Virus record (IMG/VR): IMGVR_UViG_3300029705_000029
DNA length: 64,000 nt
Direction: 5' to 3' (one strand)
Source: a virus
Taxonomy: Duplodnaviria > Heunggongvirae > Uroviricota > Caudoviricetes
How positions within the stretch are numbered: position 1 is the first letter of the stretch; every line of letters begins with the position of its first letter. Under the pieces are notes generated by a model, which ran no database searches, was not told the DNA's origin, and saw only the letters and a list, made by a program, of their open reading frames with translations. Position numbers and translations under genes: made by a program. This document shows, piece by piece, positions 1-36,947 of this stretch.

Positions 1-1120
1 GATTAGACTATATCTTCACCATGTTGTTCATGGGACTAGCACTTCCACTACCATAAGTTTGTAGTGTACTCCCTTGTGGGATAGTCGTTGAGGTTAATCT
101 ATTTAACTTGGTCAGAGTTAAACTATTCTACTCTTTCTAATTTTATCCAATCCTTATGTCTGCTGCCATTGCTGGCGTCCATTATTTTGATTGTTCCATC
201 AGGCAATTTCCATTTATACTTTGGCTTTGGTTTCCGCAATGCAGCTTTATGTGCTTCAGATTTAGGTTTGTCACGCAAGCTTTCACTAACTTTCTCGTTC
301 CATTCCTTTGTGTGAATCACATTCTTAAGACCATTCGAAATACGCTTGTTCATGTCATCGCTATTTCGATATCCCGCTCTGCTTTTGTTTCCAATGCCAT
401 ATGTGTTGCCTAGGCTTCTTTGTCTTAGTTTTTCTTTATTTGAGTCAGACATTGGTGTGCCTTTTCTTCCAGTAAGCGTTTCTGAAATATGTTTTTTCCA
501 TTCATCGCTTTTGTTGGTCACGGCTTCTAATAATTTCTCTTTAACTTCTGGTCGACGCATCGCTTCTTTTGTTGCTTCGGATATCTTTTGCTTCCAGTTT
601 TCTTTTTCTTCGTCCGTATATCCAGCAATCAAACATCCACCTTCGCCGCCGCTTGCAATGTTATATCCGTTGGGTCGAATTGTATTATATTTTTTTATAT
701 AATACTTTTCAAGTTCACAAAGTTCTGACTCGTTTTCGCATATATGCAAAATGGTTTTTTCATAATATTTATATACTTTATTTTGCTCATAAACCCACTT
801 ATGATGCGTTTTTTTGCTACTATCTAGATCATTTCTATTAAATCTTTTTCTATAGGATTGCCATAATAGAATGCCGCTTCCCATATACTTAGTATTATCA
901 TTTTGATCTTTTCCAATGTAGCTTAATCCTGTTATTAAATTTGTAATTTTATATACTTGCACATGTCATCACCAATACTTGCGTTTTAGATTAACCTGCT
1001 GATTGACTCTATTTGACAAATTTTTAGGGTAAGTGACCAAACTTACATTAACCTCCTATTGTCAACCTAACGAGTTGTCCCAGCATTTCACTAGTTTTAT
1101 AGAGCCCCCACCAGCAACTA
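1..1120 (-). mobile_element. Group I intron (partial; 3' end and downstream exon lie beyond the window start) carrying a GIY-YIG homing-endonuclease ORF
   Basis: The RNR ORF stops at 1121 right after the active-site NPCAEEP codons. A 160-nt structured leader then precedes the HEG ORF at 123..962. Beyond the HEG the minus strand reads AACGACTATCCCACAAGGGA (P7/P8-like) and GAAGATATAGTC (P7'-like; RC of 1-20), which resembles a group I core. Confidence 0.45.
123..962 (-). CDS. GIY-YIG homing endonuclease with NUMOD3-like repeats
   Basis: N-terminal VYKITNLITGLSYIGKD is a GIY-YIG motif. The C-terminal part has repeated basic motifs. The ORF sits between RNR exon 1 and the intron core. Confidence 0.8.
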   Translation of the reverse strand: MQVYKITNLITGLSYIGKDQNDNTKYMGSGILLWQSYRKRFNRNDLDSSKKTHHKWVYEQNKVYKYYEKTILHICENESELCELEKYYIKKYNTIRPNGYNIASGGEGGCLIAGYTDEEKENWKQKISEATKEAMRRPEVKEKLLEAVTNKSDEWKKHISETLTGRKGTPMSDSNKEKLRQRSLGNTYGIGNKSRAGYRNSDDMNKRISNGLKNVIHTKEWNEKVSESLRDKPKSEAHKAALRKPKPKYKWKLPDGTIKIMDASNGSRHKDWIKLERVE

Positions 1121-1936
1121 TTAAGGCTCTTCGGCACATGGGTTTGTGCCAGCATAATGGAAATCATTGAATCCACTTAGCAAATTCCAGTTATCAATTC
1201 GATCCCAGAAAAGCATTCCAGGCTCTCCCATATTCCAATTGTTCTTCGCAATCTTATGGAATAGCTCCTTGGCCTTTACAACCTTCTTGATCTCTTCTCC
1301 AGTCTCTTGGCGCACAAATGACAGCTCATAGTCTTCGTCGGCAATTACAGCTTTCATGAAATCGTCTGTAATACGAATTGAAATGTTAGCCTTTGTAACA
1401 CGGTTTAGGTCGTTTTTGATGTCAATGAATTCTTCAATATCTGGATGGTCGCAAGATAGTGAAATCATAAGTGCGCCTCTGCGACCATTTTGTGAGATGA
1501 GCCCAGTAACCAAAGAATAAAGGTCCATAAATGATACCGCACCAGAAGATTCTTTTGCGGCGTTTCTAACCTTGGCACCATTTGGAGCAAGCTTAGATAG
1601 GTCTACGCCAATGCCACCGCCATAGCTGTATGTTCTTGCAATCTTCTTTGCACATTCAAAAATTGATTCGAGATTGTCCTCTGGAGGCTCACATACATAG
1701 CAATTTGACATGCTAACCTTCCTACCAGAATGTTCTAGTCCTCTATTAGATAGGATTCTTCCACCAAATAGAAACTTTTTATCAATAATAAGATCTCTTA
1801 CAGCATTGTTGCCACCAGAAATACGATCTAGCCACTGGTCAAATGTTTCGTCTTCATAACGATACTTTCTTTCCCAAATATCAATGCCAAGCTGATTATC
1901 AGCACCTAACCACTCTTGAACGTTCAATATAATCAC
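1121..1936 (-). CDS. Ribonucleotide reductase catalytic subunit, 5' exon (class II-like; ends at the active-site TNPCAE)
   Basis: The 271-aa product has an RNR N-terminal region and terminates immediately after TNPCAEEP, so the gene is truncated by the downstream intron and HEG. Its start overlaps the upstream gene (ATGA). Confidence 0.6.
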   Translation of the reverse strand: MIILNVQEWLGADNQLGIDIWERKYRYEDETFDQWLDRISGGNNAVRDLIIDKKFLFGGRILSNRGLEHSGRKVSMSNCYVCEPPEDNLESIFECAKKIARTYSYGGGIGVDLSKLAPNGAKVRNAAKESSGAVSFMDLYSLVTGLISQNGRRGALMISLSCDHPDIEEFIDIKNDLNRVTKANISIRITDDFMKAVIADEDYELSFVRQETGEEIKKVVKAKELFHKIAKNNWNMGEPGMLFWDRIDNWNLLSGFNDFHYAGTNPCAEEP

Positions 1937-2523
1937 TCCAATTCATTATCTTTATTCATATAATATAGAACCTGCTCAAGCACATTCTCTATATTCTCAT
2001 TAGCATCAATTTTATGTAATTCAACGTTTAAACCATTGATGTTTTTATGATGCCATACAAGTTTGTCCAACTCTCTATACCAGTCATTTTTGGTATCATC
2101 ATGATGCAGTCTAGAAATAACTTCCATATCACTCGCACCTCTATCAATCATACGATCAATACGAGTTGCAACGGCTGCATCAAAATAAATAATGCACATC
2201 GCAAGACATTTATCGTGCGCTCTATTAAGCAAATACTCAACCCCTGGCACATCAATTACGTAAATATTGCATTCTTCAAGCTGTGCAAAAGTTGTACCGT
2301 AATGATGGTTGTTATAGAACGTGTAGCCAGCAAGCTCACCCAAATTGCAAAACTCATCTTTACTGATAAAAATATGACCAGTTTCTCCATCAAATCTTGG
2401 TTGTCTCGTGGTATATGAGTAAACTTGTTTATGGCCATACTTTTCTTCTAATAGATTTGCGATAGTTGTCTTTCCGCTGGCGCTCTTGCCAACGAACAAG
2501 AACAATTGATCCATACCATTCAC
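1933..2523 (-). CDS. Guanylate-kinase-like (d)NMP kinase
   Basis: P-loop GKSASGKTT plus an SYTTRQPRFDGETGHIF motif matching guanylate kinase. Confidence 0.65.
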   Translation of the reverse strand: MNGMDQLFLFVGKSASGKTTIANLLEEKYGHKQVYSYTTRQPRFDGETGHIFISKDEFCNLGELAGYTFYNNHHYGTTFAQLEECNIYVIDVPGVEYLLNRAHDKCLAMCIIYFDAAVATRIDRMIDRGASDMEVISRLHHDDTKNDWYRELDKLVWHHKNINGLNVELHKIDANENIENVLEQVLYYMNKDNELE

Positions 2524-2524
2524 C

Positions 2525-3271
2525 TCAATTCTTGATTTTCAACAGAAGATCTCTATTAATAAAACCAAGACTAGCAGCTTCTATTTTATCCGTTACCTTT
2601 TCAATACAAGTCTTAACTTCAGGATTGGCCGTGCCGTTCGTGTTGCGTTCTTTAAAAATATGAGCATATTCCGTAAGGTTAACCTTAAAAATGAAATTAG
2701 ACGGAATAGAGAGCATATAAAGACCGCGCTTAACATCCTTGTTATTCTCCATACCTTTTAGAATGTAACCATTAACTCCACGAACATAAGTATTTTCTGC
2801 ACATTCAATTTCGGTAGGAAGCTCGATGCCGAGATACTCAAGTGCTTCGTCAGTTGGAATGATTTTGTCCTGATAATATTCGGACATTTCCCCGTCGGAG
2901 AAATCTGCTAGTCTGGTAGAAGAACGAATAATACGATTTTCCATACGTTTTGCGTGCGAATCAAGATCGTCCTGACCACCTCTATGTAGCCCATAAACAC
3001 TAATACTAAAATCAAGGAATCTTCCCATTGTGATATGCTTAGGGCACCACTTGAAAAGAATCTTTAGCCAATCGTTGAGCTTTTCAGTAGTATGACTTAG
3101 CGCACCTACCGGTCCATGCTCTGGATTAGTATTAATGCACTTTGCAACTTCTGCTCTAATATCCATCTCAAGCTCACGTGTTAGTGTACGCTTTGATAGA
3201 AACATTGAAATAATTGCGTCATCCCATCCATCAATTCTATTTAGATATGCTTCCATTAAGCTTACCTCCAT
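2525..3271 (-). CDS. Hypothetical protein (possibly a nucleotide-metabolism enzyme)
   Basis: 248-aa ORF tiled with neighbours. A weak resemblance to ThyX-like proteins is not established. Confidence 0.5.
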   Translation of the reverse strand: MEVSLMEAYLNRIDGWDDAIISMFLSKRTLTRELEMDIRAEVAKCINTNPEHGPVGALSHTTEKLNDWLKILFKWCPKHITMGRFLDFSISVYGLHRGGQDDLDSHAKRMENRIIRSSTRLADFSDGEMSEYYQDKIIPTDEALEYLGIELPTEIECAENTYVRGVNGYILKGMENNKDVKRGLYMLSIPSNFIFKVNLTEYAHIFKERNTNGTANPEVKTCIEKVTDKIEAASLGFINRDLLLKIKN

Positions 3272-3576
3272 TAATTTTGTACTGTTTCTTCTTCAGTATT
3301 CTTTTCTTCCTGCTTGAGCGCCTTACCGCAAAATTCCTCAACCTTCTTGAAGATACGTTCGTATTCACGATGGCTGCAGTTAGGCTTATGCCAACCAGAA
3401 ATCATCTGCATAATTGTCATGCAAGCGGTGCGATAACCTAGGATCATATTCTGAGTACGGATTCTTTCTAGTGTGCCATTAATAGCTTCCTTGAGCTCGT
3501 CGTCATTCATTGGAATGGTTTCATCGACCTCAGCGACTGCCTCGTCAACTTCGTTGATGTTCTTGTTCTCTTCCAT
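3271..3576 (-). CDS. Hypothetical acidic protein
   Basis: ORF track; start-stop overlap with the downstream gene; conserved motif upstream. Confidence 0.45.
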   Translation of the reverse strand: MEENKNINEVDEAVAEVDETIPMNDDELKEAINGTLERIRTQNMILGYRTACMTIMQMISGWHKPNCSHREYERIFKKVEEFCGKALKQEEKNTEEETVQN

Positions 3577-3617
3577 AGTATCATTCCTTCCTTTTATTGG
3601 ATATTATTATTATAACA

Positions 3618-3637
3618 CATTAATTTTGTATTGTCAA
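3618..3637 (-). promoter_or_regulatory. Conserved motif copy (gene strand: TTGACAATACAAAATTAATG); class 1, where the motif supplies the -35 and TATAAT lies 17 nt downstream
   Basis: Minus strand TTGACA-atacaaaattaatgtgt-TATAAT upstream of 3271..3576; an 8-bp inverted repeat GGCTCTGA/TCAGAGCC abuts the -35. Confidence 0.6.
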
Positions 3638-3679
3638 GGCTCTGAGTGCAATTATTTTACAGTCAGAGCCATACAATTG

Positions 3680-6600
3680 TTAGAATTTTAGTCCATACCT
3701 TTTCTTAGCAACATCATCAAGCCATTGTGAATAAGGTTTAATTTTATCTACAATCATGCTATCTTCGCCTTCTTTTTTGCCAAGAATAGCTACCTGCTTG
3801 CCCTTTGCGATCAGATCTTGGAATTTTTGTAATGCATCAGGCCAGATCGTAACCTCTATGAGGCCATCTCCAGAATAGATATTTGCAAAAGCAAACTGAC
3901 TGCCAGTCTTTGTTTTCTTCTTCTGGATCTTAGATATAATGCCTACAATAACGCACTTATCGCCATTCTCATAAGACGTAAAATCATCAAGAATTTCATA
4001 TGCTTTGGCGAATGGATTTTCATCTGATACAAAGATTTGTAAAGTCTCAAACTCCCAGAATGCTTCATCTTGTAAGTATTTTGTATTGCACTCTTCAATA
4101 TATGTTTGGTATTTAAGCTTTTGCTCTTCATCAAACTTGGCTTTTTTCTTAGCGTTGTAGATTTCTAGCACTCGTTCTTTATCTACTTTGCGGCCAATCA
4201 TATATTCCGTTGTGTCAATGTCCCAGTCTAATAGTAGTTTTTGTTTCGTAGGCAAAGTTGCAACAGGCTTGTATTCACTTTGCTGATACATTGAACTGAG
4301 ATATTTAATTAGAAACTTCTTCTTGTTCTTGGTGGGAATTGCGCCTGATTTTACAAGATTGATAATCTGCGCTTTTGTTGGTTGCACTCTTTCAATAAAA
4401 TTATTCAGGTCTACAAATTTGCCATTAGCATTACGTTCATCAATAATTGATTCAGCTAACGTTTCGCCAATGCCAGTAATTGCAGAATATCCAAATAGAA
4501 TTTTATCGTTAGCAACGGAAAAATTCATTTCAGATTTATTGATGTTTGGAGGCAACACTTCTACGTCAAACTGCTTTGCATCTAGAATGTGCTTGTTGAT
4601 CATGCCAGGTTTGTTTTTGTTCATGTTAAAAAGCGCACTGAAGAAGTATTTACTATAATGACATTTCAAGTATGCAGTTTGCAGACATAGAACTGCATAA
4701 CTATATGAATGCGACTTGTTAAAGAGGTAGCCGCCTTTAGTTGAAAGATCATCGCTGATCTGTTGTGCAAGTTCTTTGCTGTAGCCATTGTCAATAATTT
4801 CCTGATACAGTTTCGCAGACTCTTGCTTGACTAGTTCAATATTCTTTTTACCAATGGCCTTTCTAAATAGGTCAGCACCGCCATAACTTCTACCACCAAA
4901 TTTTCTAACAATATCTAGCAATTGCTCCTGATAAATCATACACCCAAACGTTTCTTTGAGAATTGGTTCCATATCTGGATGAATGTATGTTACTCTTTCA
5001 GGATGTTTGCTGCATTCAATATATTCTTCAAGCGCACCCATAGAGTCTGGCCTATATAGTGCTAGAACTGCAGAAACCTGAGACAAGTCAGAAGGCTGAA
5101 GTCTTAAAAGCAGATCCTTCATACCAGCGCTTTCTACCTGAAAAACACCATTTGTCATTGCGCTACTAAGCAGCTTATATGAATCCACATCATATTCAAA
5201 TTTTGGGTTGTTAATGTCAATTTCCCAATCAGACACATGCGCCTCATTTTGTGTTTCTTGAACAAGACCAAGTGACGCAACGCCAAGAATATCGTACTTA
5301 ATAATGCCAACTTCTTCAACAACGCGCTTATCAACCTGAATTACGTGCTCGCCATCTTGTCCAAGTTTCATTGGCATAAAGTCTGTAACTTTGCCATCAA
5401 CAATACCAACGCCACCTGCGTGAATAGATGTTGTTTTTACACGACCAGAAAGATGACTTGCAATATCAAACAATTCTTTGTACTTTGGATTGTCAGCAGC
5501 TTCCTTATTGTTTTCCAAACACTCCTCAAATGTTGCATACACAAAACCCTTGCTGAGCTTGTCCATTTCTTTATATGGAAATCCAAGCACTTTGCCGACG
5601 TCTTTAAGTGCCACAACAGGTGTGATAAAAGAAAAGTTAATAATCTGACAAACACGATCTTCACCATATCTTTCAATAAGATAATTAACAACAGCTCCTC
5701 TATCAAATACATCTGTATCTGTATCTGGCATAGATACTCGTTCAGGATTTAGGAATCTCTGAAAAATTAGACCATATTTGATAGGATCAATGTCGGTAAT
5801 TTCAATGGCAAAGCATACAAGGCTTCCAGCACAACTACCTCTGCCAGCGCCAACTTTGTTGCCATTTTCTTTACACCATTTAATAAAGTCTGCAACAATC
5901 AAAAAGTAACCGTCAAATCCCATCTGATGAATTACGTCAAGTTCATAGTCAAGTCGCTCACGATAGATTTTTTGCTTTTCTTCGTCAAACTCATTAAACT
6001 TGCGCTTCTTCCAGCCTTCTTCGATAGAATGTCTAAGATACTCATAGTTATCATTAAATCCATCAGGAAGCGGGAACGTAGGTAGCTTTGGAGACTGAAA
6101 TGGCATGCCAACAATCTCGCACATGTCAGCTATTTCATTAGTGTTGGCTAGGCCAATATTTACTGCTTCAACACCAATGTGCTCGTCAAGTACGTTGTGG
6201 ATTTCTTCCTCTGACATCAGATAACAGTCATTATAGCTTTCAGACATTGTTTCTGAATCATGTGCAATCTGTACTAGACGGCCTTGATAGTACAGATCCT
6301 CTTTTGTCGCGGCGTGAGAATCTGTGGTTATAATCCATTTAGTATTGGTGTCTTTGGCGAGTTCCAGAATCTTGGCGTTATATTCTTCTTGATCCTGATT
6401 ATTGCCATGCGCTTGTAGTTCTAGATAAAAATGAGGGAACAATGCGCGATATTCGTTCACATATTCTAAGCACTTATTGTAATCTGACTCTCTGGACAAT
6501 TTTGATGCCAAACAAGCAGATGTAATTACTAGATCATTCGCATATGGGGCAATATCATGGATTGTCACACGTGGACGATAGTATTTGCCATGAAGTTCTG

Positions 6601-6913
6601 ATAGAGTGATGAGTTCATTGAGTGCAACACGACCTCGCTCGTTTCTTGCAATTGCAATAAGGTGGAAATATTTTGTATCCTTATTCTTCTCGTTGCGATC
6701 AAAACATTCGTAAAATTCTACACCATAAAGCATTTTTACCTCTGGATAGTCTTTTTTGAGCTTGTCAAAATAGCACCAAGAATAGGCGTTACCATGCTCG
6801 GTAATACAAAATGCCTTGAGGCCAATTTCTTTAGCACGTTTAAGATACTCTTCTGGTTTCGCGTAACCGTCAAGCAAAGAGTACATGCTGTGGTTATGAA
6901 GACTACTGTACAT
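3680..6913 (-). CDS. dnaE: DNA polymerase III alpha subunit (DnaE-type replicative polymerase with PHP domain)
   Basis: 1077 aa. N-terminal PHP motifs (HNHSMYSLLDG, CITEHGN) and the palm motif GRGSCAGSLVCFAIEITDIDP...PDTDTD. Confidence 0.85.
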   Translation of the reverse strand: MYSSLHNHSMYSLLDGYAKPEEYLKRAKEIGLKAFCITEHGNAYSWCYFDKLKKDYPEVKMLYGVEFYECFDRNEKNKDTKYFHLIAIARNERGRVALNELITLSELHGKYYRPRVTIHDIAPYANDLVITSACLASKLSRESDYNKCLEYVNEYRALFPHFYLELQAHGNNQDQEEYNAKILELAKDTNTKWIITTDSHAATKEDLYYQGRLVQIAHDSETMSESYNDCYLMSEEEIHNVLDEHIGVEAVNIGLANTNEIADMCEIVGMPFQSPKLPTFPLPDGFNDNYEYLRHSIEEGWKKRKFNEFDEEKQKIYRERLDYELDVIHQMGFDGYFLIVADFIKWCKENGNKVGAGRGSCAGSLVCFAIEITDIDPIKYGLIFQRFLNPERVSMPDTDTDVFDRGAVVNYLIERYGEDRVCQIINFSFITPVVALKDVGKVLGFPYKEMDKLSKGFVYATFEECLENNKEAADNPKYKELFDIASHLSGRVKTTSIHAGGVGIVDGKVTDFMPMKLGQDGEHVIQVDKRVVEEVGIIKYDILGVASLGLVQETQNEAHVSDWEIDINNPKFEYDVDSYKLLSSAMTNGVFQVESAGMKDLLLRLQPSDLSQVSAVLALYRPDSMGALEEYIECSKHPERVTYIHPDMEPILKETFGCMIYQEQLLDIVRKFGGRSYGGADLFRKAIGKKNIELVKQESAKLYQEIIDNGYSKELAQQISDDLSTKGGYLFNKSHSYSYAVLCLQTAYLKCHYSKYFFSALFNMNKNKPGMINKHILDAKQFDVEVLPPNINKSEMNFSVANDKILFGYSAITGIGETLAESIIDERNANGKFVDLNNFIERVQPTKAQIINLVKSGAIPTKNKKKFLIKYLSSMYQQSEYKPVATLPTKQKLLLDWDIDTTEYMIGRKVDKERVLEIYNAKKKAKFDEEQKLKYQTYIEECNTKYLQDEAFWEFETLQIFVSDENPFAKAYEILDDFTSYENGDKCVIVGIISKIQKKKTKTGSQFAFANIYSGDGLIEVTIWPDALQKFQDLIAKGKQVAILGKKEGEDSMIVDKIKPYSQWLDDVAKKRYGLKF

Positions 6914-9719: not shown

Positions 9720-10151
9720 CTACTCCTTCGGCGGTTCTGGAAGTGGCATCCAGTGCGTGATCGTATGGTCGTAAAAGAAATATTGCCACGGAGAACGCCA
9801 ACCCTCTATGTTGTACCCGTGCATGTTGTGCGTGTAGCTTGTCATTGCGATAGCGTCATCTCCAATGGTAGCGGGAGCAAAAACCAGTACATTCACATCG
9901 TCATCGGGCAATCTATCATCTACACTAATCCACTTCGGAATACTTTTTAAGATGGTTTTAATATGCTGCGAAACTTTGTGCTTGACTTCTGCAAACTCGC
10001 TAATGGCATATGTGGCATTGAGCTGTTCTGCGTCACATCTTTTCTCAAGCTCCGATACATTTTCATATATAATGTCAATCAACTTATCAATTCTTTCGTT
10101 CGGACTCATATAACTGCACCATCCTATTCCATTCATCGATTGCTTCATCAT
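9720..10151 (-). CDS. Hypothetical protein
   Basis: ORF track; tiled. Confidence 0.45.
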   Translation of the reverse strand: MMKQSMNGIGWCSYMSPNERIDKLIDIIYENVSELEKRCDAEQLNATYAISEFAEVKHKVSQHIKTILKSIPKWISVDDRLPDDDVNVLVFAPATIGDDAIAMTSYTHNMHGYNIEGWRSPWQYFFYDHTITHWMPLPEPPKE

Positions 10152-10672: not shown

Positions 10673-12625
10673 TCACTCATTTTTGTCAATCATGCTCAAA
10701 AATTCTTCCTCTGTGATAATTGGCACTCCAAGCTCAACCGCTTTCTTGTACTTAGAAGATCCACTCTGTTCATTTGTGATAAGGTAGTCAGTCTTCTTGG
10801 ATACAGAGCCAACTGCTTTTGCGCCAAGAGATGCAATCTTTTCATTGATAGAATCTCTGGTGAAGTGGTTAAGTTTGCCTGTAACACAAATAGATTTACC
10901 GTTAAATTGGCTGTTACTTACACTTTTCTTTTCAGGAACAATAAAGTGCATCTCGTCAGCAAGCCTGAGAATATCCGAATAATTATATTCTAAATAATTA
11001 TCAAGAGTTGTAGCCATTGTTTCACCAAAATCGTCCAACGTGTCCCATGGGAATCCATGAGAATATGCATCCGCCCAATCGTGAAAACTCCCATTAAACT
11101 TCTGCGAGATGGTTTTAGCGGCAGACAAACCAATGTTGGGGATACCAAGTGCTGCAATGAAGTTCTCAAGCTTCACATTGCGTGATTTCTCTATGCTAGA
11201 CAATAGTTTTTCAACCGATTTAGCTCCTAAACCATCTAGCTTGATAAGTTGGTTACGGTAGTTTGAAAGCTTATAAATGTCCAAAAAACTATTGATATAA
11301 TTAAGAGAAATCAACCTTTCAAGCAAAGCCTCTGCAAGACCTTCGATGTTCATGCACTTGCGACTTACAAAATGTACAAACTGCGCAATCTTCTTGGCAG
11401 CACAATCTGGATTTACACACATAAGTACTTGGCTATTGTCGGTATTTTTAACAACCGTCTCTGACCCGCAACAAGGACATTTCTTTGGAGCTTCAAGAGT
11501 GTTACTTCTGGTAAGATTATCATCAATCTTAGGAATAACCATATTGCTGCGATAAACAGTAATAGTATCACCAATACCAAGTTCAAGCTGCTTAATGATA
11601 GACAAATTATGTAGTGTTGCTCTTGTGGTTAAAGCTCCATCGAGATCAATTTCAGAAAACACGGCAGTCGGCGCAATTAAACCCGTTCTAGTCGGATTCC
11701 ACTCCACATCAAGTAACGTAGTTTCATATGTACTATCCGCCCACTTAAGAGCCATTCTACAGCCCTCATGATGTGATGTTGCAGTGAGAGATTTAGAATA
11801 TTCCTTCATACACATCTCGAAAATTAGACCGTCGACAGGATAACTATAAGATTCTGGCGTCATTTCTGTTACGCAAGCTTCAACTTCCCCAAGACACCTA
11901 TCCACAGTTTCAAAACCAAGATAATCTAGATATCCAAGTTCATCCCACTTAGAATCATATTTGCCGTTTTCGTCATATAGATCAGATACACACTCAAATA
12001 CTATATAGGAAAGGTTTCTAACCTTAGTGATATTTGTATCAAGATTACGAAGACTGCCTGCAGCCAAATTACGAGGATGGGAATATTTATCCTCAAGAGT
12101 TTCATTAATCTTGTTGAAATTATCCCAAGAAACAACACATTCTCCACGAAGTTCAAGATCCATATCGTATGGAATATTCATGGGAAGGTTGCTAATCATC
12201 TTGGCCTGTTCGGTGACATCTTCTCCAATTGTACCCGTTCCCCTCGTAACAGCCTGTACAAACTTACCATTACTGTACCGAACGACGAGTGTCAATCCAT
12301 CAAGTTTGTAACTACAATAAAACGCATTATTACCAATGAACTTTTTGATTTCATTGATATCCTTAGTTTTTGCTGCGGATAGCATTGGTTTAGTGTGTTC
12401 TACTTTAGTAAAGCCATCTAGCACAGCGCCTTGCACTTTACGCGTAGGGCTGTTGGCAAGCCAGAAATTTGCTTCGTTTTCCAGCTGTTCAAGCTCGTTA
12501 TACTTTTTATCGTAAGCCGCATCACTAATAGTAGGATTGTCCATGACATAATATTCATGACAATACCGCAGAAGCTCTACAGTTAGTTCTTTGATTCTCT
12601 CAATTCTATTCATCGCGCACTTCAC
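10673..12625 (-). CDS. ligA: NAD-dependent DNA ligase
   Basis: KLDG adenylation motif (YKLDGLTLVVRY), Cys4 zinc finger (CPCCGSE...CVNPDC), helix-hairpin-helix region and a C-terminal BRCT domain. Confidence 0.85.
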   Translation of the reverse strand: MKCAMNRIERIKELTVELLRYCHEYYVMDNPTISDAAYDKKYNELEQLENEANFWLANSPTRKVQGAVLDGFTKVEHTKPMLSAAKTKDINEIKKFIGNNAFYCSYKLDGLTLVVRYSNGKFVQAVTRGTGTIGEDVTEQAKMISNLPMNIPYDMDLELRGECVVSWDNFNKINETLEDKYSHPRNLAAGSLRNLDTNITKVRNLSYIVFECVSDLYDENGKYDSKWDELGYLDYLGFETVDRCLGEVEACVTEMTPESYSYPVDGLIFEMCMKEYSKSLTATSHHEGCRMALKWADSTYETTLLDVEWNPTRTGLIAPTAVFSEIDLDGALTTRATLHNLSIIKQLELGIGDTITVYRSNMVIPKIDDNLTRSNTLEAPKKCPCCGSETVVKNTDNSQVLMCVNPDCAAKKIAQFVHFVSRKCMNIEGLAEALLERLISLNYINSFLDIYKLSNYRNQLIKLDGLGAKSVEKLLSSIEKSRNVKLENFIAALGIPNIGLSAAKTISQKFNGSFHDWADAYSHGFPWDTLDDFGETMATTLDNYLEYNYSDILRLADEMHFIVPEKKSVSNSQFNGKSICVTGKLNHFTRDSINEKIASLGAKAVGSVSKKTDYLITNEQSGSSKYKKAVELGVPIITEEEFLSMIDKNE

Positions 12626-32639: not shown

Positions 32640-32713
32640 TGGAGCATCGTACCAGATTCGGACTGGCACTCCAACCTTGGAAGGGTTGTGTGCTACCATT
32701 ACACCAACGATGC
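32640..32713 (-). tRNA. tRNA-Gly (anticodon TCC)
   Basis: Minus-strand GCATCGT...anticodon loop CTTCCAA...T-loop TCCGAAT...ACGATGC-T-CCA. Confidence 0.8.
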
Positions 32714-32774
32714 ATATTTGCATAAGCTCTAGTTTAAACACCTACACGACGTGAACATACTTATGCTGGTAGGC

Positions 32775-32910
32775 TTGTCCCTCTGGGACTCGAACCCAGA
32801 CTATGCCTTGCTAGGGCCTACGGCTTATTGGTGACAGATTGTAGATTTGCACTACAATATCCTAAATGAATCTGCCAAGGCCGTGGCTCTCACCATTGAG
32901 CTAAGGGACA
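32775..32910 (-). tRNA. Atypical ~136-nt tRNA-like gene with a ~50-nt insertion in the anticodon arm (type II-like long variable arm)
   Basis: Canonical 7-bp acceptor (TGTCCCT/AGGGACA), U8, A14, D-arm GCTC/GAGC and T-arm CTGGG-TTCGAGT-CCCAG. The anticodon-stem halves ACGGC and GCCGT are separated by about 55 nt that fold into an extended hairpin (ATTGTAG-TGCAAAT-CTACAAT). Confidence 0.5.
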
Positions 32911-33446
32911 TTATAAAGCGGTTTTTCTTTCGGACATCTCCTATTGAGGTATGGATTACCGAAAACCACTAAGGTAGGCACATGTGCGTCACTTTCCTCA
33001 ACAAGCTAAAACACTTTAAAAGCCTTGGTGGGCAAGGTTGGTGCCGCCCCAACTACTCCCGAAGGAAACGGGTTTACAGCCCGTCGCGTTTGCTGATTCG
33101 CTACTTGCCCAAGGTGTCACGCCATTTTGAGACTAACGTGCTGTCTTGGCTTTTTGTTGTCGTTGTTTCACAGGTGCCATAACCAACGCCTTTCTCATGT
33201 TGCCACATATTAAGCCTGTGTTATTGAGAAATAGTAAGAGTCAATACCAGCTTGGTGCACGTGGAGGGCCACGATCCCTCAATCCCTTACGGGCACTGGT
33301 TTTTGAGACCAGCTTGTATGCCAATTCCAACACACGTGCGCATGCCCAACACTTGTCCATGCACCCACGAAAATTCGCACGTCAGCTGTTGGCACTGAAC
33401 AGAAACCATTTGAGCTCAGAGGCCGTTTACTGTCATATTACCTCTC

Positions 33447-33583
33447 TGGTGCTGGATACCAGACTTGAACTGGTACGGTATATTTCAACCAGCGGATTTT
33501 TTGTGATAGGCATGAGTGATGACCTCACTACTGCTCTGGCAACCCACCAAGTCCGCTGTGTCTGCCGATTCCACCAATCCAGC
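33447..33583 (-). tRNA. Atypical ~137-nt tRNA-like gene with a ~55-nt insertion in the anticodon arm; CCA encoded
   Basis: Perfect 7-bp acceptor GCTGGAT/ATCCAGC followed by A-CCA; T-arm ACCAG-TTCAAGT-CTGGT; 3-bp D-stem; anticodon-stem halves GCGGA and TCCGC separated by about 55 nt. Confidence 0.5.
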
Positions 33584-34232
33584 ATATCGGGCAGTTTTAC
33601 ATCTTGCCCAGGATGCCGATTAAAACTTCGGACCATCCTCCAAGTTGGAATAAGCAAATACAATCATAAGCAATTTCCTCCTTTGGATTATTTACTGCTG
33701 CTAACTAGAACGTCGAAACATAACTCCAATTACGAATAAGGAGCGACCTTTGTCCAGCGGACGCTATGCCCGAAATCCTTACAACCTAACAGTGTGGGAG
33801 CGACCTCGGTTAAAACTTTTTATTATATTGAGCTTGCTACTTACCAGCCACGGAGACAACCTATGGGCCTTGACCACCAACCCAAACTCTTTATCGTGGA
33901 TTTGGTAAATCTTTTGTGGACTACGCATTCTTCTGCGATCTTAGCCCTCTTTACAACCTTAATAAACGACCTTTGATCAAATCAATCTTTGAAGTTTGAA
34001 CGTTAAATTTTGAACCTTGATCCTTAATCTTTACAGCAACACTTATAATATATATCATATATTTTAAATCTTTATCATGCCTAAAAGATTTACAGTATAA
34101 GATTCTTGCTTAACGGGCAAGTCTTCTATTAATTGAAGATACTTTCTTTAACTTATTAATATCACTCTAAGTATCAAAAAGAAGAGATAAGCAGTCGTTT
34201 AAGGTTTCCGATAAGTAGCAAGCAAGTTTGCC

Positions 34233-34979
34233 TTAGTACTCGAACTCGATAACAGTTACAGCGTTGGAAACACTGAGAGCTGCATCAACTTCAGTTTCAA
34301 ACTCATTAATCTCGTCCATGAGATTTTCCATAAGGTTAGTGACGCCAAGCGGGTCAATTAGGTCATAAGTATTGTTCGTAATGTAATCCTTGCGAAGAGC
34401 CTTCATTGCATCACTATCGATAGCCATCTTAGAATCCTTAGGCTGAGCCTGGATTACAGACAGCACATACTGTTCAGCTCGCTTTTCAATGGCTTCGCCA
34501 CTATTACGATCAAGCTCAACATATGCTGCGCGATAGTTGTCTACAATGCGCTGACGAAGAATCTTCTTGTATTCCATGCCGTGATTCTTCTCTTCGATAG
34601 CCTCAGCGACCGTCATTTCCTTTTCGCCAACTACAACCTTGGTGGTTGCATTGGAAATCACAACAGCTCGCTTCATTGCGTCACGACGCGCAATTAGAGA
34701 CTGAACCTTCTGGTAAGCACTCTTGATGTTTTCCTTGAACTCGGCCACGGTAACTCCGTTAACCTTTTCTGCTGAGTGCTTAACTGCCATCGCGTAAGGA
34801 TGTGCGTTAATTGCCTTTAGGATGCGATCATCCATAGTCTTGAGTTCTGCAAGTGCCTTGTGAACCGTCATCTTTTCCTGAGTCATTTTCTTGTACCCCC
34901 TAATAAGCTTTGAATCATTAATTTTGTACTGTTTCCCTTGAACTGGAATTAGTATATCACACATTCCATATTCTGTCAA
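34233..34979 (-). CDS. Hypothetical protein
   Basis: 248-aa ORF; sigma-70-like promoter TTGACA-N17-TATACT at 34950-34980 plus the conserved motif upstream. Confidence 0.5.
   Translation of the reverse strand: MTEYGMCDILIPVQGKQYKINDSKLIRGYKKMTQEKMTVHKALAELKTMDDRILKAINAHPYAMAVKHSAEKVNGVTVAEFKENIKSAYQKVQSLIARRDAMKRAVVISNATTKVVVGEKEMTVAEAIEEKNHGMEYKKILRQRIVDNYRAAYVELDRNSGEAIEKRAEQYVLSVIQAQPKDSKMAIDSDAMKALRKDYITNNTYDLIDPLGVTNLMENLMDEINEFETEVDAALSVSNAVTVIEFEY
34917..34937 (-). promoter_or_regulatory. Conserved motif copy (class 2)
   Basis: Upstream TTGACA-N17-TATACT at about 34950-34980. Confidence 0.5.
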
Positions 34980-35003
34980 TAGAGTTTTTAAATCTTAACA
35001 AAA

Positions 35004-35080
35004 TGGCGTCCCAGGAGAGATTCGAACTCCCGACACACGGCTTAGAAGGCCGTTGCTCTATCCTACTGAGCTACTGGGAC
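35004..35080 (-). tRNA. tRNA-Arg (anticodon TCT)
   Basis: GTCCCAG...CTTCTAA...TTCGAAT...CTGGGAC-G-CCA. Confidence 0.8.
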
Positions 35081-35329
35081 ATAATATGGTAGGGTATCTC
35101 CAACCTACCGCGAACTACTAACAACATCACTTGCGTTTATTCTTTAGCAAGCATCCAATCAAGGCTGTGATGAACCCTGCTTGCCGCCGAAGACTAACTT
35201 GAATTATAAAGCCTAATAGTTTGTGGACTTGAACCACACAGCGCTCTTCCACTGGCCATCCTGCAACGTACCATATAACTTTTCGAGCAGTTTCTTCTCA
35301 ACTGGTTTAACGTGCGAAGTCAGCACGGC

Positions 35330-35405
35330 TGGTGGAGATGATGGGACTCAAACCCACGACTTTTACCTTGCAAGGGTAACACTCTATCAACTGAGTTACA
35401 TCCCC
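35330..35405 (-). tRNA. tRNA-Ala (anticodon TGC)
   Basis: GGGGATG...CTTGCAA...TTTGAGT...CATCTCC-A-CCA. Confidence 0.8.
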
Positions 35406-35821
35406 ATAAAATGTGTATACCAGTTTTGATTGGGACGAAGACTGGAAACTTCTTTTCTCTCGACTCGCTCCGTAGAGTCGGCTTAACCGACGTACTATTC
35501 TGTCTCGCATACACTTTCTGAGACTTGTGAAGAGAGCATTCACAATAGCGACCTAAGCCTTTTTGCCGTTAGAAAGCATTATCTTGTCGCCTGGATAGGT
35601 GGACTTTTGGAACGTGCACCACCATACACTCCGTCCTATATCTAACTGGACATTTCGCTTTTCTTTCAGATAAAAATCTTAGCTGCTTTGTGGTTTTGCG
35701 ATAACCCATAGTGTTCTCCATCAAGTACCGCATGGCAGCACGGGATTGACTTCACAGAACGAGCCTAATCTCAAGTATTAGGCAAAACACGTGTATGATA
35801 TTCTAAGTGTCATACCCGCTG

Positions 35822-35912
35822 TGGCGGAGATGGTGAGCTTTGAACTCACGCGCCAATTTCTTGACCTAATCGGTTAGCAACCGATCCCCTTCAACCGCTT
35901 GGGTACATCTCC
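35822..35912 (-). tRNA. tRNA-Ser (anticodon GCT), type II
   Basis: GGAGATG...TTGCTAA, long variable arm, TTCAAAG T-loop, CATCTCC-G-CCA. Confidence 0.75.
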
Positions 35913-35915
35913 ATG

Positions 35916-36006
35916 TGGCGACTGGTTTCGGACTTGAACCGAAACACCCTTTCGGGTTACTGGCAGATTTCGAATCTGCTGCCTTACCAATTAGGCTTAA
36001 CCAGCC
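35916..36006 (-). tRNA. tRNA-Ser (anticodon CGA), type II
   Basis: GGCTGGT...TTCGAAA, long variable arm (CAGTAACCCGAAAGGGTGT), TTCAAGT, ACCAGTC-G-CCA. Confidence 0.7.
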
Positions 36007-36016
36007 GCATGATTGA

Positions 36017-36139
36017 TTACTTCTGCTCCAGCTGTCTAATCTGACGCTTTAGCTTATTAATGATGTTTGCGTTGCCAACAGGATCTCTCTGCTGTAGAAG
36101 GTTAATACGTGCCTGAAGTCGTTCAACAGTCTTAGTCAT
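36017..36139 (-). CDS. Small basic coiled-coil protein (40 aa, hand-called) embedded in the tRNA array
   Basis: ATG at 36139 after GGAGGTATAAAATC; product MTKTVERLQARINLLQQRDPVGNANIINKLKRQIRQLEQK. Confidence 0.35.
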   Translation of the reverse strand: MTKTVERLQARINLLQQRDPVGNANIINKLKRQIRQLEQK

Positions 36140-36214
36140 GATTTTATACCTCCATTATTAATTAAATATGGTAGCAGTGTTTTTAGTCCATATTAAACTA
36201 GGCACCCACCTCTG

Positions 36215-36248
36215 TGGATCCCGCCAGGATTGAACTGACATCTCTGCT
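36215..36248 (-). other. Orphan tRNA 3'-half-like fragment (T-arm plus acceptor 3' strand) abutting tRNA-Thr
   Basis: Minus-strand GTCAG-TTCAATC-CTGGC followed by GGGATCC-A, with no matching 5' half nearby. Confidence 0.3.
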
Positions 36249-36324
36249 TGGAGCCGAGTATCGGACTTGAACCGATAGCCTGCTGATTACAAATCAGCTG
36301 CTCTGCCAATTGAGCTAACTCGGC
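36249..36324 (-). tRNA. tRNA-Thr (anticodon TGT)
   Basis: GCCGAGT...TTTGTAA...TTCAAGT...ACTCGGC-T-CCA. Confidence 0.8.
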
Positions 36325-36432
36325 ATAAAATAGTCTAAGACTCTTCCGTCCTGTCAAGGATAGGTCATCGCTTGTTTCTAGCCAAACCAAGAATCAATTA
36401 ACTCGAAAACGCTTTTACATTCTTAGACTATA

Positions 36433-36507
36433 TGGCTGGGAACCAGGGTAACGCTCCCCGTCTTCATGGGTCAAAGCCATGCGTACCAACTTTTATACGA
36501 GTTCCCA
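36433..36507 (-). tRNA. tRNA-Gln-like (anticodon TTG) with a non-canonical T-loop
   Basis: TGGGAAC acceptor pairing with GTTCCCA-G-CCA; D-arm GTAT/GTAC; anticodon arm CATGG-CTTTGAC-CCATG; T-arm CGGGG-AGCGTTA-CCCTG lacks the TTC. Confidence 0.45.
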
Positions 36508-36625
36508 TCATTGACCCAACTTTCTGCTCCTTGTATGCTTGCATCAGAGGCCAGGACGCTCTCTCCGTATTGGGTCGGAGTACGTATATTTCACTACTCA
36601 CGTGTCTGTTCGCGAAACAGCATGT

Positions 36626-36700
36626 TGGCGGTCACGGTGTGACTCGAACACACAACCTAGCGGTTAACAGCCGCTTGCTCCACCATTGAGCTACGTGACC
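36626..36700 (-). tRNA. tRNA-Asn (anticodon GTT)
   Basis: GGTCACG...CTGTTAA...TTCGAGT...CGTGACC-G-CCA. Confidence 0.8.
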
Positions 36701-36871
36701 ATATGGTGTCTCTACAGGCGGGGCCAGTGCAGCGACCCTATATGAGGGCTTTCCACGAACTACTTTTGCAACATTTTGTATGTCTGTTAATCTTACTGCC
36801 GTCAGCTAATTGGCAGTCGTTGCTATCCTTGTTCCGTACTAACACCTATACATTGCACTACCTGTAGAGAG

Positions 36872-36947
36872 TGGTGGGTGATTGGAGAATCGAACTCCAG
36901 ACGCCATGATTAAAAGTCATGTGCTCTACCAACTGAGCTAATCACCC
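36872..36947 (-). tRNA. tRNA-Lys (anticodon TTT)
   Basis: GGGTGAT...CTTTTAA...TTCGATT...ATCACCC-A-CCA. Confidence 0.8.

Follow-up and report, generated by a model that had tools for sequence, protein, structure and literature searches.

What interrupts the ribonucleotide reductase (RNR) gene at the beginning of this phage sequence? In the stretch of 64,000 nt that was analysed (the window), an RNR open reading frame (ORF) on the minus strand (1936/1927..1121) reads ...YAGTNPCAEEP and is closed at once by a TAA stop codon (1123..1121). A spacer of 158 nt follows, and then a second minus-strand ORF (962..123). An earlier note on this DNA had pointed out the stop directly behind TNPCAEEP and an 840-nt ORF behind a leader of about 160 nt, both as found here, and had taken the region for a group I intron carrying a homing endonuclease. 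We are confident that the region is a mobile, phage-type IA group I intron of 1,190 nt in an nrdJ-type class II RNR gene.

The host gene and its completion

Exon 1 (1124..1927, minus strand) begins with TTG at 1927, the start chosen by the gene caller with GGAG 8 nt upstream, or with GTG at 1936, and its last base is the T (U in the RNA) at 1124. The ORF matches the Pfam model Ribonuc_red_lgC (E 2.8e-43) over model positions 1-215 of 523 only, indicating that exon 1 alone encodes a truncated barrel. The remainder was read on a 171-kb metagenome contig (L001), which is identical to the window base for base over 10,962 nt and runs on into exon 2. Positions 10963-11029 of this contig supply the missing last 67 nt of the intron (P9, P9.1, P9.2 and the terminal G). 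Exon 2, which begins LPAGGSCLL(GS...), therefore lies 67 nt past the window edge, in the direction where the earlier note had expected it.

Excision of the 1,190 nt in silico leaves an intact frame and a complete NrdJ protein of 757 amino acids. The spliced coding sequence (1-2265) aligns end to end with positions 1-2268 of the uninterrupted gene on a syntenic phage contig (L012), and the protein is collinear with the 120 full-length homologues listed of about 8,000, at 66-85% identity with one exception at 57%. It scores 517.4 bits with the class II model TIGR02504 (NrdJ_Z; cutoff 399.95) and 300.7 bits, below the cutoff of 341.05, with the class I model TIGR02506. A protein database search returned no sequence identical to the spliced product, the best match having 85% identity. 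The host gene is thus a class II (NrdJ, adenosylcobalamin-dependent) RNR of a human-gut phage of about 171 kb. The insertion falls after the Pro codon and before the Leu codon of NPCAEEP|LPAGG, and the thiyl-radical cysteine is encoded four codons before it. The predicted ligated junction is ...GCCGAAGAGCCT-TTACCAGCTGGAGG..., the intron-less L012 contig has ...GCCGAAGAACCC-CTCCCAGCTGG... at the insertion site, and uninterrupted homologues read NPCAEEPLPAGGSCLLGS across the junction.

Seven contigs carry this exact intron, all of them 100% identical. Megablast of window positions 1-4000 against 50,697 phage genomes (INPHARED) gave no match. Scanning IMG/VR with protein patterns recovered three loci only, one of which is the same phage, and searches with exact core patterns gave 1 and 4 matches in IMG/VR and 3 in JGI/ENA metagenomes, an ORF-less homologue (L026) being among the finds.

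Ribozyme architecture and covariation

The window holds the first 1,123 nt of the intron (1..1123, minus strand); the remainder and exon 2 lie past window position 1. The first three intron bases form the TAA stop (1121..1123) in frame with exon 1, an arrangement described as typical of group I introns in bacteria and phages (PMC3984707). The internal guide sequence (1101..1115) pairs with both exons. Its GGGCUCU part (1107..1101) and the exon bases AGAGCCU (1124..1130) constitute P1, which is 98.7% paired among the homologous copies and places the U at 1124 in a U.G pair at the 5' splice site in 11/11 copies. The adjoining GCUGGUGG (1115..1108) pairs with the first eight bases of exon 2, UUACCAGC, to give P10, in which two pairs show compensatory changes; P10 covaries with exon 2, for example as GGGAG with CUCCC in one homologue (L030). 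No P2 is found between P1 and P3, as P3 follows the P1 3' strand after just AUAAA in 11/11 copies.

The 5' strand of P3, ACUAGU (1090..1095), covaries with the 3' strand GCUAGU (35..40), with 100% pairing and compensatory changes at 3/6 pairs. A P4-P5 domain (997..1085) comprises P4 (UGCUG/CAGCA), P5 (ACUC/GAGU), P5a (UUGACAA/UUGUCAA), P5b (UAGG/CCUA) and P5c (GUAAGU/ACUUAC). P6 joins AGGUUAAUCUA (987..997) to UAGAUUAACCU (91..101), and 8/10 of its pairs are compensatory. The P7 5' strand GACUAU (81..86) is invariant in all copies. It is followed by the hairpins P7.1 (CCC-ACAA-GGG, 80..71; 2/3 pairs compensatory) and P7.2 (CACUAC...GUAGUG, 66..46; 5/6), by P3 3' and by P8 (CCAUG-AACAA-CAUGG, 19..33; all 5 pairs). 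J8/7 and the P7 3' strand, GAAGAUAUAGUC (6..17), represent the most conserved group I core motif. The intron ends ...UUAUG in bases read on L001, outside the window. The terminal G is invariant, and so are the last three bases, AUG, which are in frame with exon 2.

The earlier note had singled out AACGACTATCCCACAAGGGAG (89..69) and GAAGATATAGTC (17..6) as resembling a P7-P8-P7' core. Both motifs are present and belong to a group I core, and only the helix labels have to be changed: the CCC-ACAA-GGG after GACTAT is the hairpin P7.1 and not P3'/P8, with P3' at GCTAGT (40..35) and P8 at 33..19. Three further pairings were considered and rejected. P3' cannot be placed at UCCCA right after P7, as the CCC/GGG covaries as hairpin P7.1 in homologues; an alternative P3, UGGGAC/GUCCCA, gives way to the covarying ACUAGU/GCUAGU; and AGUAC/GUGCU, as an outer extension of P7.2, would overlap with P3' and is not conserved in L030.

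The architecture is of the phage IA type, with P7.1/P7.2 present and P2 missing, and we withhold a firm assignment to IA2. P7.1/P7.2 were reportedly recognized as a feature of subgroup IA by Michel and Westhof in 1990. Most described IA2 introns have P2. Both P7.1 and P7.2 are also mentioned as class features in PMC3984707.

The Rfam group I model (RF00028, gathering score 50 bits) gave no match, only noise, in window positions 1-2000, because the window stops at the first base of P9. The completed intron scores 33.8 bits (E 1.7e-6), as the earlier note's proposed Rfam check had anticipated, and stays under the gathering score since the 886-nt P6 loop breaks the alignment to the model. The 262-nt ORF-less homologue at the same site (L026) reaches 54.0 bits, above the gathering score, so the ORF in P6 accounts for the lower score of the completed copy. 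Intron regions of crAss-like, PBS1/AR9 and Twort-like phages share 68-75% identity with the 3' core.

Helices P1 to P10 were evaluated in 11 distinct, diverged copies from gut-phage contigs. Standard pairs occupy 97.0% of pair cells, and both sides have changed in 51/95 pairs. Every helix is 90-100% paired, and the core P3-P4-P5-P6-P7-P8-P9, including the P3/P7 pseudoknot, is present; P4 and P7 are invariant and therefore uninformative for covariation. None of 500 shuffles matched the observed percentage paired, the counts of compensatory changes or the covariation score, and 6/500 matched the number of further pair types. Slid controls were only 33-43% paired. The exon is constrained as well: positions -6..-1 read GAGCCT in 10/10 intron-bearing alleles and GAACCC, GAACCA or GAACCG in the intron-less alleles (n=3), a constraint at synonymous sites of the kind that P1 would impose. 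The proposal of a group I intron in an RNR gene is thus upheld by the two checks set out in the earlier note, the RNR frame beyond the window start and the Rfam match, and by covariation over 11 copies that supports every core helix, P1 and P10 included.

These data also bear on whether the intron might be a relic that has ceased to splice, leaving nrdJ inactive in this phage. P2 is absent, the Rfam score of the copy in the window is under the gathering score, and P8 has been lost in two homologues (L031 and L026), which shows that some core erosion is tolerated within the family. In the present copy, however, no core helix is missing, P10, the U.G pair and the terminal G are all in place, and the two exons and the ORF of the endonuclease are undamaged; the ORF in P6 explains the low score, as the ORF-less copy passes; and the substitutions across the family are compensatory and not random, which points to selection on structure. 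We consider decay very improbable.

Alternatively, a free-standing homing endonuclease could have split nrdJ into halves that would each be translated on their own and then join to form an active enzyme. Gene callers do annotate two separate RNR ORFs, and split RNR genes that function without an intron are documented (PMC3653736, PMC3045599). In Aeromonas phage Aeh1, nrdA is split by mobE and its halves are translated separately, without a ribozyme (PMC3653736); as here, a homing endonuclease gene divides an RNR large-subunit gene, which automatic annotation then shows as two ORFs. The invariant terminal AUG, in frame with exon 2, would even allow a Met-extended C-terminal fragment to be made from unspliced RNA. 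There is, however, no convincing ribosome-binding site before this AUG, the nearest GG (of UAUGG) being in the 3' strand of P9.2. In contrast to Aeh1, the present endonuclease ORF is surrounded by a complete ribozyme with covariation support: its non-coding flanks, 350 nt in all, make up an entire group I core that contains the compensatory pairs described above. P1 and P10 set an exact codon boundary, and the ORF-less element at the same site is inexplicable by insertion of a free-standing endonuclease. We therefore regard separately translated halves as scarcely credible for this locus. An intein is rejected because the stop is in frame and the inserted ORF has a different frame and its own start codon, and a group II intron because the only match (Plastid-ycf3, opposite strand) is at chance level, with 13 bits (gathering score 55.2) and E 7.4-9.9.

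The endonuclease and the proposed splicing and homing

The group I intron encodes a protein of 279 amino acids related to the I-TevI/Seg-like GIY-YIG homing endonucleases. Its ORF (123..962, minus strand; 840 nt with the stop codon) starts with GTG and is entirely within the P6 loop. A Shine-Dalgarno-like GGUGA motif (969..973) is located 6 nt upstream of the GTG and, judged by sequence, would serve as its ribosome-binding site (GGTGA, 973..969).

The earlier note had called this ORF a GIY-YIG/NUMOD3 protein, an assignment that appears to hold for the family of homologues and not for the window protein by itself. The latter scores 17.4 bits with Pfam GIY-YIG (PF01541; threshold 22.6) and has no NUMOD3 match at E up to 0.1. 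Among 22 family members (E-values up to 0.1), 13 match PF01541 and 9 match SegE_GIY-YIG. NUMOD3 is matched in 13/22 homologues at E up to 0.1 (best 4.3e-6), downstream of the nuclease domain. The family profile finds the I-TevI catalytic domain (1LN0) with E 1.5e-6, and the single sequence shows a remote similarity to I-TevI (E 0.028). A match to PHROG 314, 'homing endonuclease', has E 1.5e-24.

Residues Y4, Y15/G17, E85 and N101 are invariant in the 22 homologues, and E85 and N101 align with Glu75 and Asn90 of I-TevI in the profile alignment. The equivalence of Y4 with Tyr6 and of Y15 with Tyr17 follows from the motif pattern only, as the alignment starts at profile position 14 and puts Y15 one residue off Tyr17. 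The position aligned with Arg27 of I-TevI is a Ser, with an R-K-R cluster (38-40; K39 invariant) 2-4 residues away. This Ser and the sub-threshold Pfam score mean that endonuclease activity is not assured. We identified 176 homologues, with identity down to about 45% among the 120 listed, and in every contig inspected the endonuclease occupies the same site, flanked by the two halves of the RNR gene.

Splicing and homing of the nrdJ intron can be outlined from established group I chemistry and by analogy with I-TevI. A ribosome on exon 1 would halt at the TAA of intron bases 1-3, freeing the ribozyme to fold. Free guanosine bound in P7 would attack the bond after U(-1) while the guide sequence held both exons through P1 and P10. 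The terminal G would then enter the G-site, and the exons would be ligated to ...GAGCCU-UUACCAGC..., restoring one NrdJ of 757 amino acids. The endonuclease, translated from its own GGUGA/GUG signals, may cut intron-less nrdJ alleles of co-infecting phages near the conserved site, and repair off the intron-bearing copy would spread the intron and, with it, the GAGCCT codons beside it. Empty sites are found in syntenic relatives. The 100% identity of the seven contigs that have the exact intron gives no sign that this copy has moved recently.

Related systems and significance

The closest parallels are in phage T4, which reportedly has a td intron with I-TevI and an nrdB intron with I-TevIII. 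Like the td intron, the element described here belongs to subgroup IA of the group I introns and interrupts a phage gene of nucleotide metabolism in codons of conserved active-site residues, with a stop in frame at the intron start and an endonuclease ORF looped out of P6. Both endonucleases appear to be of the modular GIY-YIG kind, and the family profile obtained here matches the I-TevI catalytic domain. In contrast to T4, the host gene is class II nrdJ and not td or class I nrdB, and the host is an uncultured gut phage and not a T-even phage. The intron is also without P2, its endonuclease is only remotely similar to I-TevI, and past the nuclease domain the endonuclease family has NUMOD3-type motifs (13/22 members), I-TevI being known for a zinc finger and a helix-turn-helix.

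In Staphylococcus phage Twort (nrdE) and Bacillus prophage SPbeta (bnrdE/bnrdF), self-splicing introns are found beside RNR large-subunit residues that are highly conserved and important for catalysis (PMC3653736). These differ from the present intron in that they are in class Ib genes, have HNH or other endonucleases and occupy different insertion sites. The Twort-like phages Romulus and Remus have an intron region about 68% identical to the present 3' core, under annotations of RNR alpha subunit and HNH endonuclease. In the Bacillus cereus group, nrdF has a group IA intron whose GIY-YIG endonuclease is unconventional (PMC2248736). It resembles the present intron in subgroup, in residing in an RNR gene and apparently in encoding a GIY-YIG homing endonuclease, and differs in being bacterial, chromosomal and in the small subunit gene.

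The NPC-AEEP-LPAGG region is itself crowded. Within the same 20 nt of the gene in which the present intron is inserted (AEEP|L), relatives have an intein at NP|C, a second intron that breaks up the Cys codon and leaves behind a micro-exon of 14 nt, and, at NPCG|E, a third intron, which is of the GIY-YIG kind and unrelated. An Rfam scan of eight related loci for additional interruptions (LAGLIDADG-containing, the L010 intron and the upstream intron of L031) gave no match at E up to 0.01.

In the literature examined, split nrdJ genes are described and no group I intron in nrdJ. The intron might belong to the first group I intron family described in a class II (NrdJ) RNR, a large, diverged and partly mobile lineage of human-gut phages with a P2-less IA ribozyme, whose terminal AUG would let the C-terminal fragment be translated from unspliced RNA too, so that the gene is expressed either spliced or in pieces. 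Taken as a whole, we think this broader proposal unlikely.

The intron is a selfish element of a well-known type, seldom described in this class of genes, and it leaves the understanding of group I introns unchanged. In practice, annotation is affected: pipelines call the gene as two RNR fragments and a hypothetical protein, and a single functional nrdJ is recovered once the intron is recognized. Many gut-phage contigs coding for homologues of this endonuclease call for a like correction. The well-known association of homing elements with active-site codons of RNR is extended to the class II enzyme, and the crowded NPC-AEEP-LPAGG site offers a compact natural system for studying competition among selfish elements.

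Reconstruction of the interrupted nrdJ gene

The ribonucleotide reductase (RNR) reading frame of the window (1936/1927..1121, minus strand) ends in ...FHYAGTNPCAEEP, with a TAA stop codon directly after it. The match to the Pfam RNR barrel domain (E 2.8e-43) spans model positions 1-215 of 523 only, which leaves out roughly half of the barrel. The stop is followed, after 158 nt, by an 840-nt open reading frame (ORF) with a GTG start (962..123, minus strand; 279 aa). This is the arrangement that an earlier note had read from the sequence, with a stop right after the catalytic codons and a leader of about 160 nt before the ORF, and the two motifs that it had likened to a group I intron core are present at 89..69 and 17..6 (minus strand).

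Looking up the exact sequence of the endonuclease led to a 171,516-bp ENA metagenome contig, L001, in which no base differs from the window along the 10,962 nt that they share (subtracting an L001 coordinate from 10963 gives the window position). The element continues past the window edge, the window stopping inside it. The L001 junction reads ...GAATATTATG/TTACCAGCTGGAGGATCTTGT..., and the part after the slash translates as LPAGGSCLLGS, placing the downstream exon beyond the window start as had been anticipated. At the corresponding stretch, Clostridioides phage LIBA6276, whose RNR is uninterrupted, has NPCAEEPLPAGGSCLLGS. In silico excision of L001 9840-11029 (1,190 nt) yields a 757-aa protein that scores 517 bits on the NrdJ_Z equivalog model, above the cutoff of 399.95, and that is collinear from end to end (100% of its length) with the best 120 full-length homologues, nearly all at 66-85% identity. 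The spliced DNA aligns along its full length with nrdJ of L012, a syntenic phage contig in which the gene has no interruption (1-2265 to 1-2268, 77.8% identity). The intron-less loci L012, L013, L014 and L007 lack the intron DNA.

Structure and covariation of the ribozyme

The last base of the 5' exon is U and the final intron base is G. Exon bases AGAGCCU pair with GGGCUCU (intron bases 17-23) to form P1, in which a U.G pair marks the cleavage site. P10 forms between the eight bases directly upstream of the P1 guide, GCUGGUGG, and the start of exon 2, whose first eight bases are UUACCAGC. Intron-bearing alleles carry GAGCCT at -6 to -1 (10 of 10), and the only three intron-less alleles sampled carry the synonymous GAACCC, GAACCA or GAACCG. 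Over the 15 exon bases next to the splice site, intron-bearing alleles average 94% identity to one another and 74% to the three empty sites. The signature fits a requirement of P1, co-conversion during homing, or both.

We aligned 11 distinct intron copies, collected from contigs with endonuclease homologues and by three pattern scans, with the P6 loop trimmed, and used this alignment to evaluate a structure drawn from the window copy. Standard pairs form in 97.0% of pair cells, compared with 83.5% in shuffles and 33-43% after the pairing partners have been displaced by 1-3 columns. Both sides have changed in 51 of 95 pairs (25.9 expected), and none of 500 shuffles equalled the real alignment in percentage paired or in covariation score. 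Compensatory changes occur in all variable helices, including P3, P5, P5a, P5c, P6, P7.1, P7.2, P8, P9, P9.2 and P10, and P4 and P7 are invariant. The elements follow the order P1, P3, P4-P5(a-c), P6 (with the ORF in its loop), P7, P7.1, P7.2, P3', P8, P7', P9, P9.1, P9.2 and terminal G; except for the absence of P2 between P1 and P3, this is the layout of phage-type IA introns. The window holds the intron through the 3' strand of P7, its edge being the first base of P9.

The Rfam group I model, proposed in the earlier note as a check, found no match in the window sequence alone and scored the intron completed with the missing 67 nt at 33.8 bits (E 1.7e-6), below the gathering score of 50. A 262-nt ORF-less homologue of the intron, at the same site in gut-phage contig L026, reached 54.0 bits. 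In its 3' core the intron shares 68-75% identity with intron regions of crAss-like phages, of Bacillus phages PBS1/AR9 and of Twort-like staphylococcal phages; the region matched in the last of these groups is annotated as RNR alpha subunit and HNH endonuclease. The copies in L031 and L026 are devoid of any P8 hairpin (alignment columns 235-252), with the remaining core intact, and the L026 copy still exceeds the gathering score.

A free-standing endonuclease between two RNR fragments that are translated separately, as in Aeh1 nrdA, is contradicted by the conservation of the ribozyme and by the existence of an ORF-less copy. There is a slight possibility that exon 2 is additionally translated from unspliced RNA, because the last three intron bases, AUG, are invariant and in frame with it. 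A dead intron is contradicted by the intact core and the compensatory pattern of substitutions.

The intron-encoded endonuclease and its predicted homing

The ORF (L001 10001-10840) lies entirely between the P6 strands (9966-9976 and 10862-10872), with a GGUGA motif 6 nt 5' of its GUG start. The GIY-YIG/NUMOD3 identity suggested earlier holds only at family level, the window protein itself giving a weak GIY-YIG signal (17.4 bits; Pfam cutoff 22.6): among 22 family members, GIY-YIG and NUMOD3 were each detected in 13 and SegE_GIY-YIG in nine (E-values up to 0.1), and the 22-homologue profile matches the I-TevI catalytic domain (PDB 1LN0; E 1.5e-6). The protein also matches PHROG 314 'homing endonuclease' (E 1.5e-24) and, by tblastn, Seg-like and other homing endonucleases of T4-like phages (27-32% identity). 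Residues Y4, Y15, G17, E85 and N101 are invariant across the 22 homologues. The profile alignment pairs E85 with I-TevI Glu75 and N101 with Asn90; by sequence pattern, Y4 and Y15/G17 probably represent the Tyr6 and Tyr17/Gly19 motifs, and the counterpart of Arg27 is uncertain. Database homologues number 176, with identity down to about 45% among the 120 listed, and in all contigs inspected the endonuclease lies between two RNR halves at this site.

The best explanation is a mobile phage-type IA group I intron, which would be removed by textbook group I chemistry, restoring nrdJ, and may home along the I-TevI paradigm; endonuclease activity and target site are predicted by analogy only. According to a review (PMC3984707), introns often begin with an in-frame stop, and in phages they are usually found in genes for RNR, polymerase and terminase.

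Other elements and the place of the intron among known examples

Several relatives carry further elements in nrdJ. L031 contains a second, ORF-less group I-like intron of 218 nt (2117-2334) within the catalytic Cys codon (AAT CCC T/GT). By eye, it has P1 (AAUCCCU/GGGGAUU), P10 (GUGCA/UGCAU), a UAGUC P7' motif and a terminal G; Rfam did not detect it. It is separated from the GIY-YIG intron solely by a 14-nt micro-exon, GTGCAGAAGAGCCT (2335-2348), which also occurs in L026. An IMG/VR relative, L010, has a different GIY-YIG ORF, downstream of an AUAGUC motif, in a different intervening sequence 9 nt upstream (2037-3160; NPCG/EKPLP), and another, L009, has an in-frame intein at NP/C (973-4083; CFTGD...VHN/CAEEP). 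About 20 nt of nrdJ host four different selfish elements, the L031 intron included. Further upstream, L019-L022 are interrupted again (~1030-2010 in each locus) by a LAGLIDADG_3 ORF of 264-301 aa flanked by RNR fragments of 151-159 and 115-144 aa, leaving nrdJ in three pieces with two different endonucleases. This interruption is presumably another intron, with no Rfam match.

Upstream of nrdJ, the window encodes a nucleotide-metabolism and replication module (1933-6913, minus strand), including a guanylate-kinase-like protein, a weak Thy1 (ThyX)-like protein and a 1,077-aa DnaE-type polymerase, in a gene order syntenic with related ~160-173 kb gut-metagenome contigs. A cluster of 11 tRNA genes (32640-36947, minus strand; Gly, Tyr, Leu, Arg, Ala, two Ser, Thr, Gln, Asn and Lys) contains a 'drum RNA' (RF02958; 35651-35760, minus strand; 68.6 bits, gathering score 43). 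A second, sub-threshold copy (32914-33025, minus strand; 33.3 bits, E 2.4e-4) adjoins a tRNA-like gene that ARAGORN did not call (32775-32910, minus strand; 48.6 bits on Rfam tRNA). In this gene the acceptor, D and T arms are normal, the variable region measures 17 nt and a ~57-nt hairpin-forming insert stands in place of the anticodon loop (folding z-score -2.95); it may be a phage tRNA that contains an intron or is non-canonical.

In phages, RNR genes are those most frequently interrupted by introns. Group I introns in RNR genes are thoroughly known, as RNRdb had curated more than 100 by 2009, and split nrdJ genes (phiYS40, P60) and nrdJ inteins have been described. No group I intron in nrdJ was found in the literature searched, a partial coverage that is not proof of absence. 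The original call of a group I intron splitting the RNR gene was correct, and the intron is a further example of a familiar type, of modest significance.
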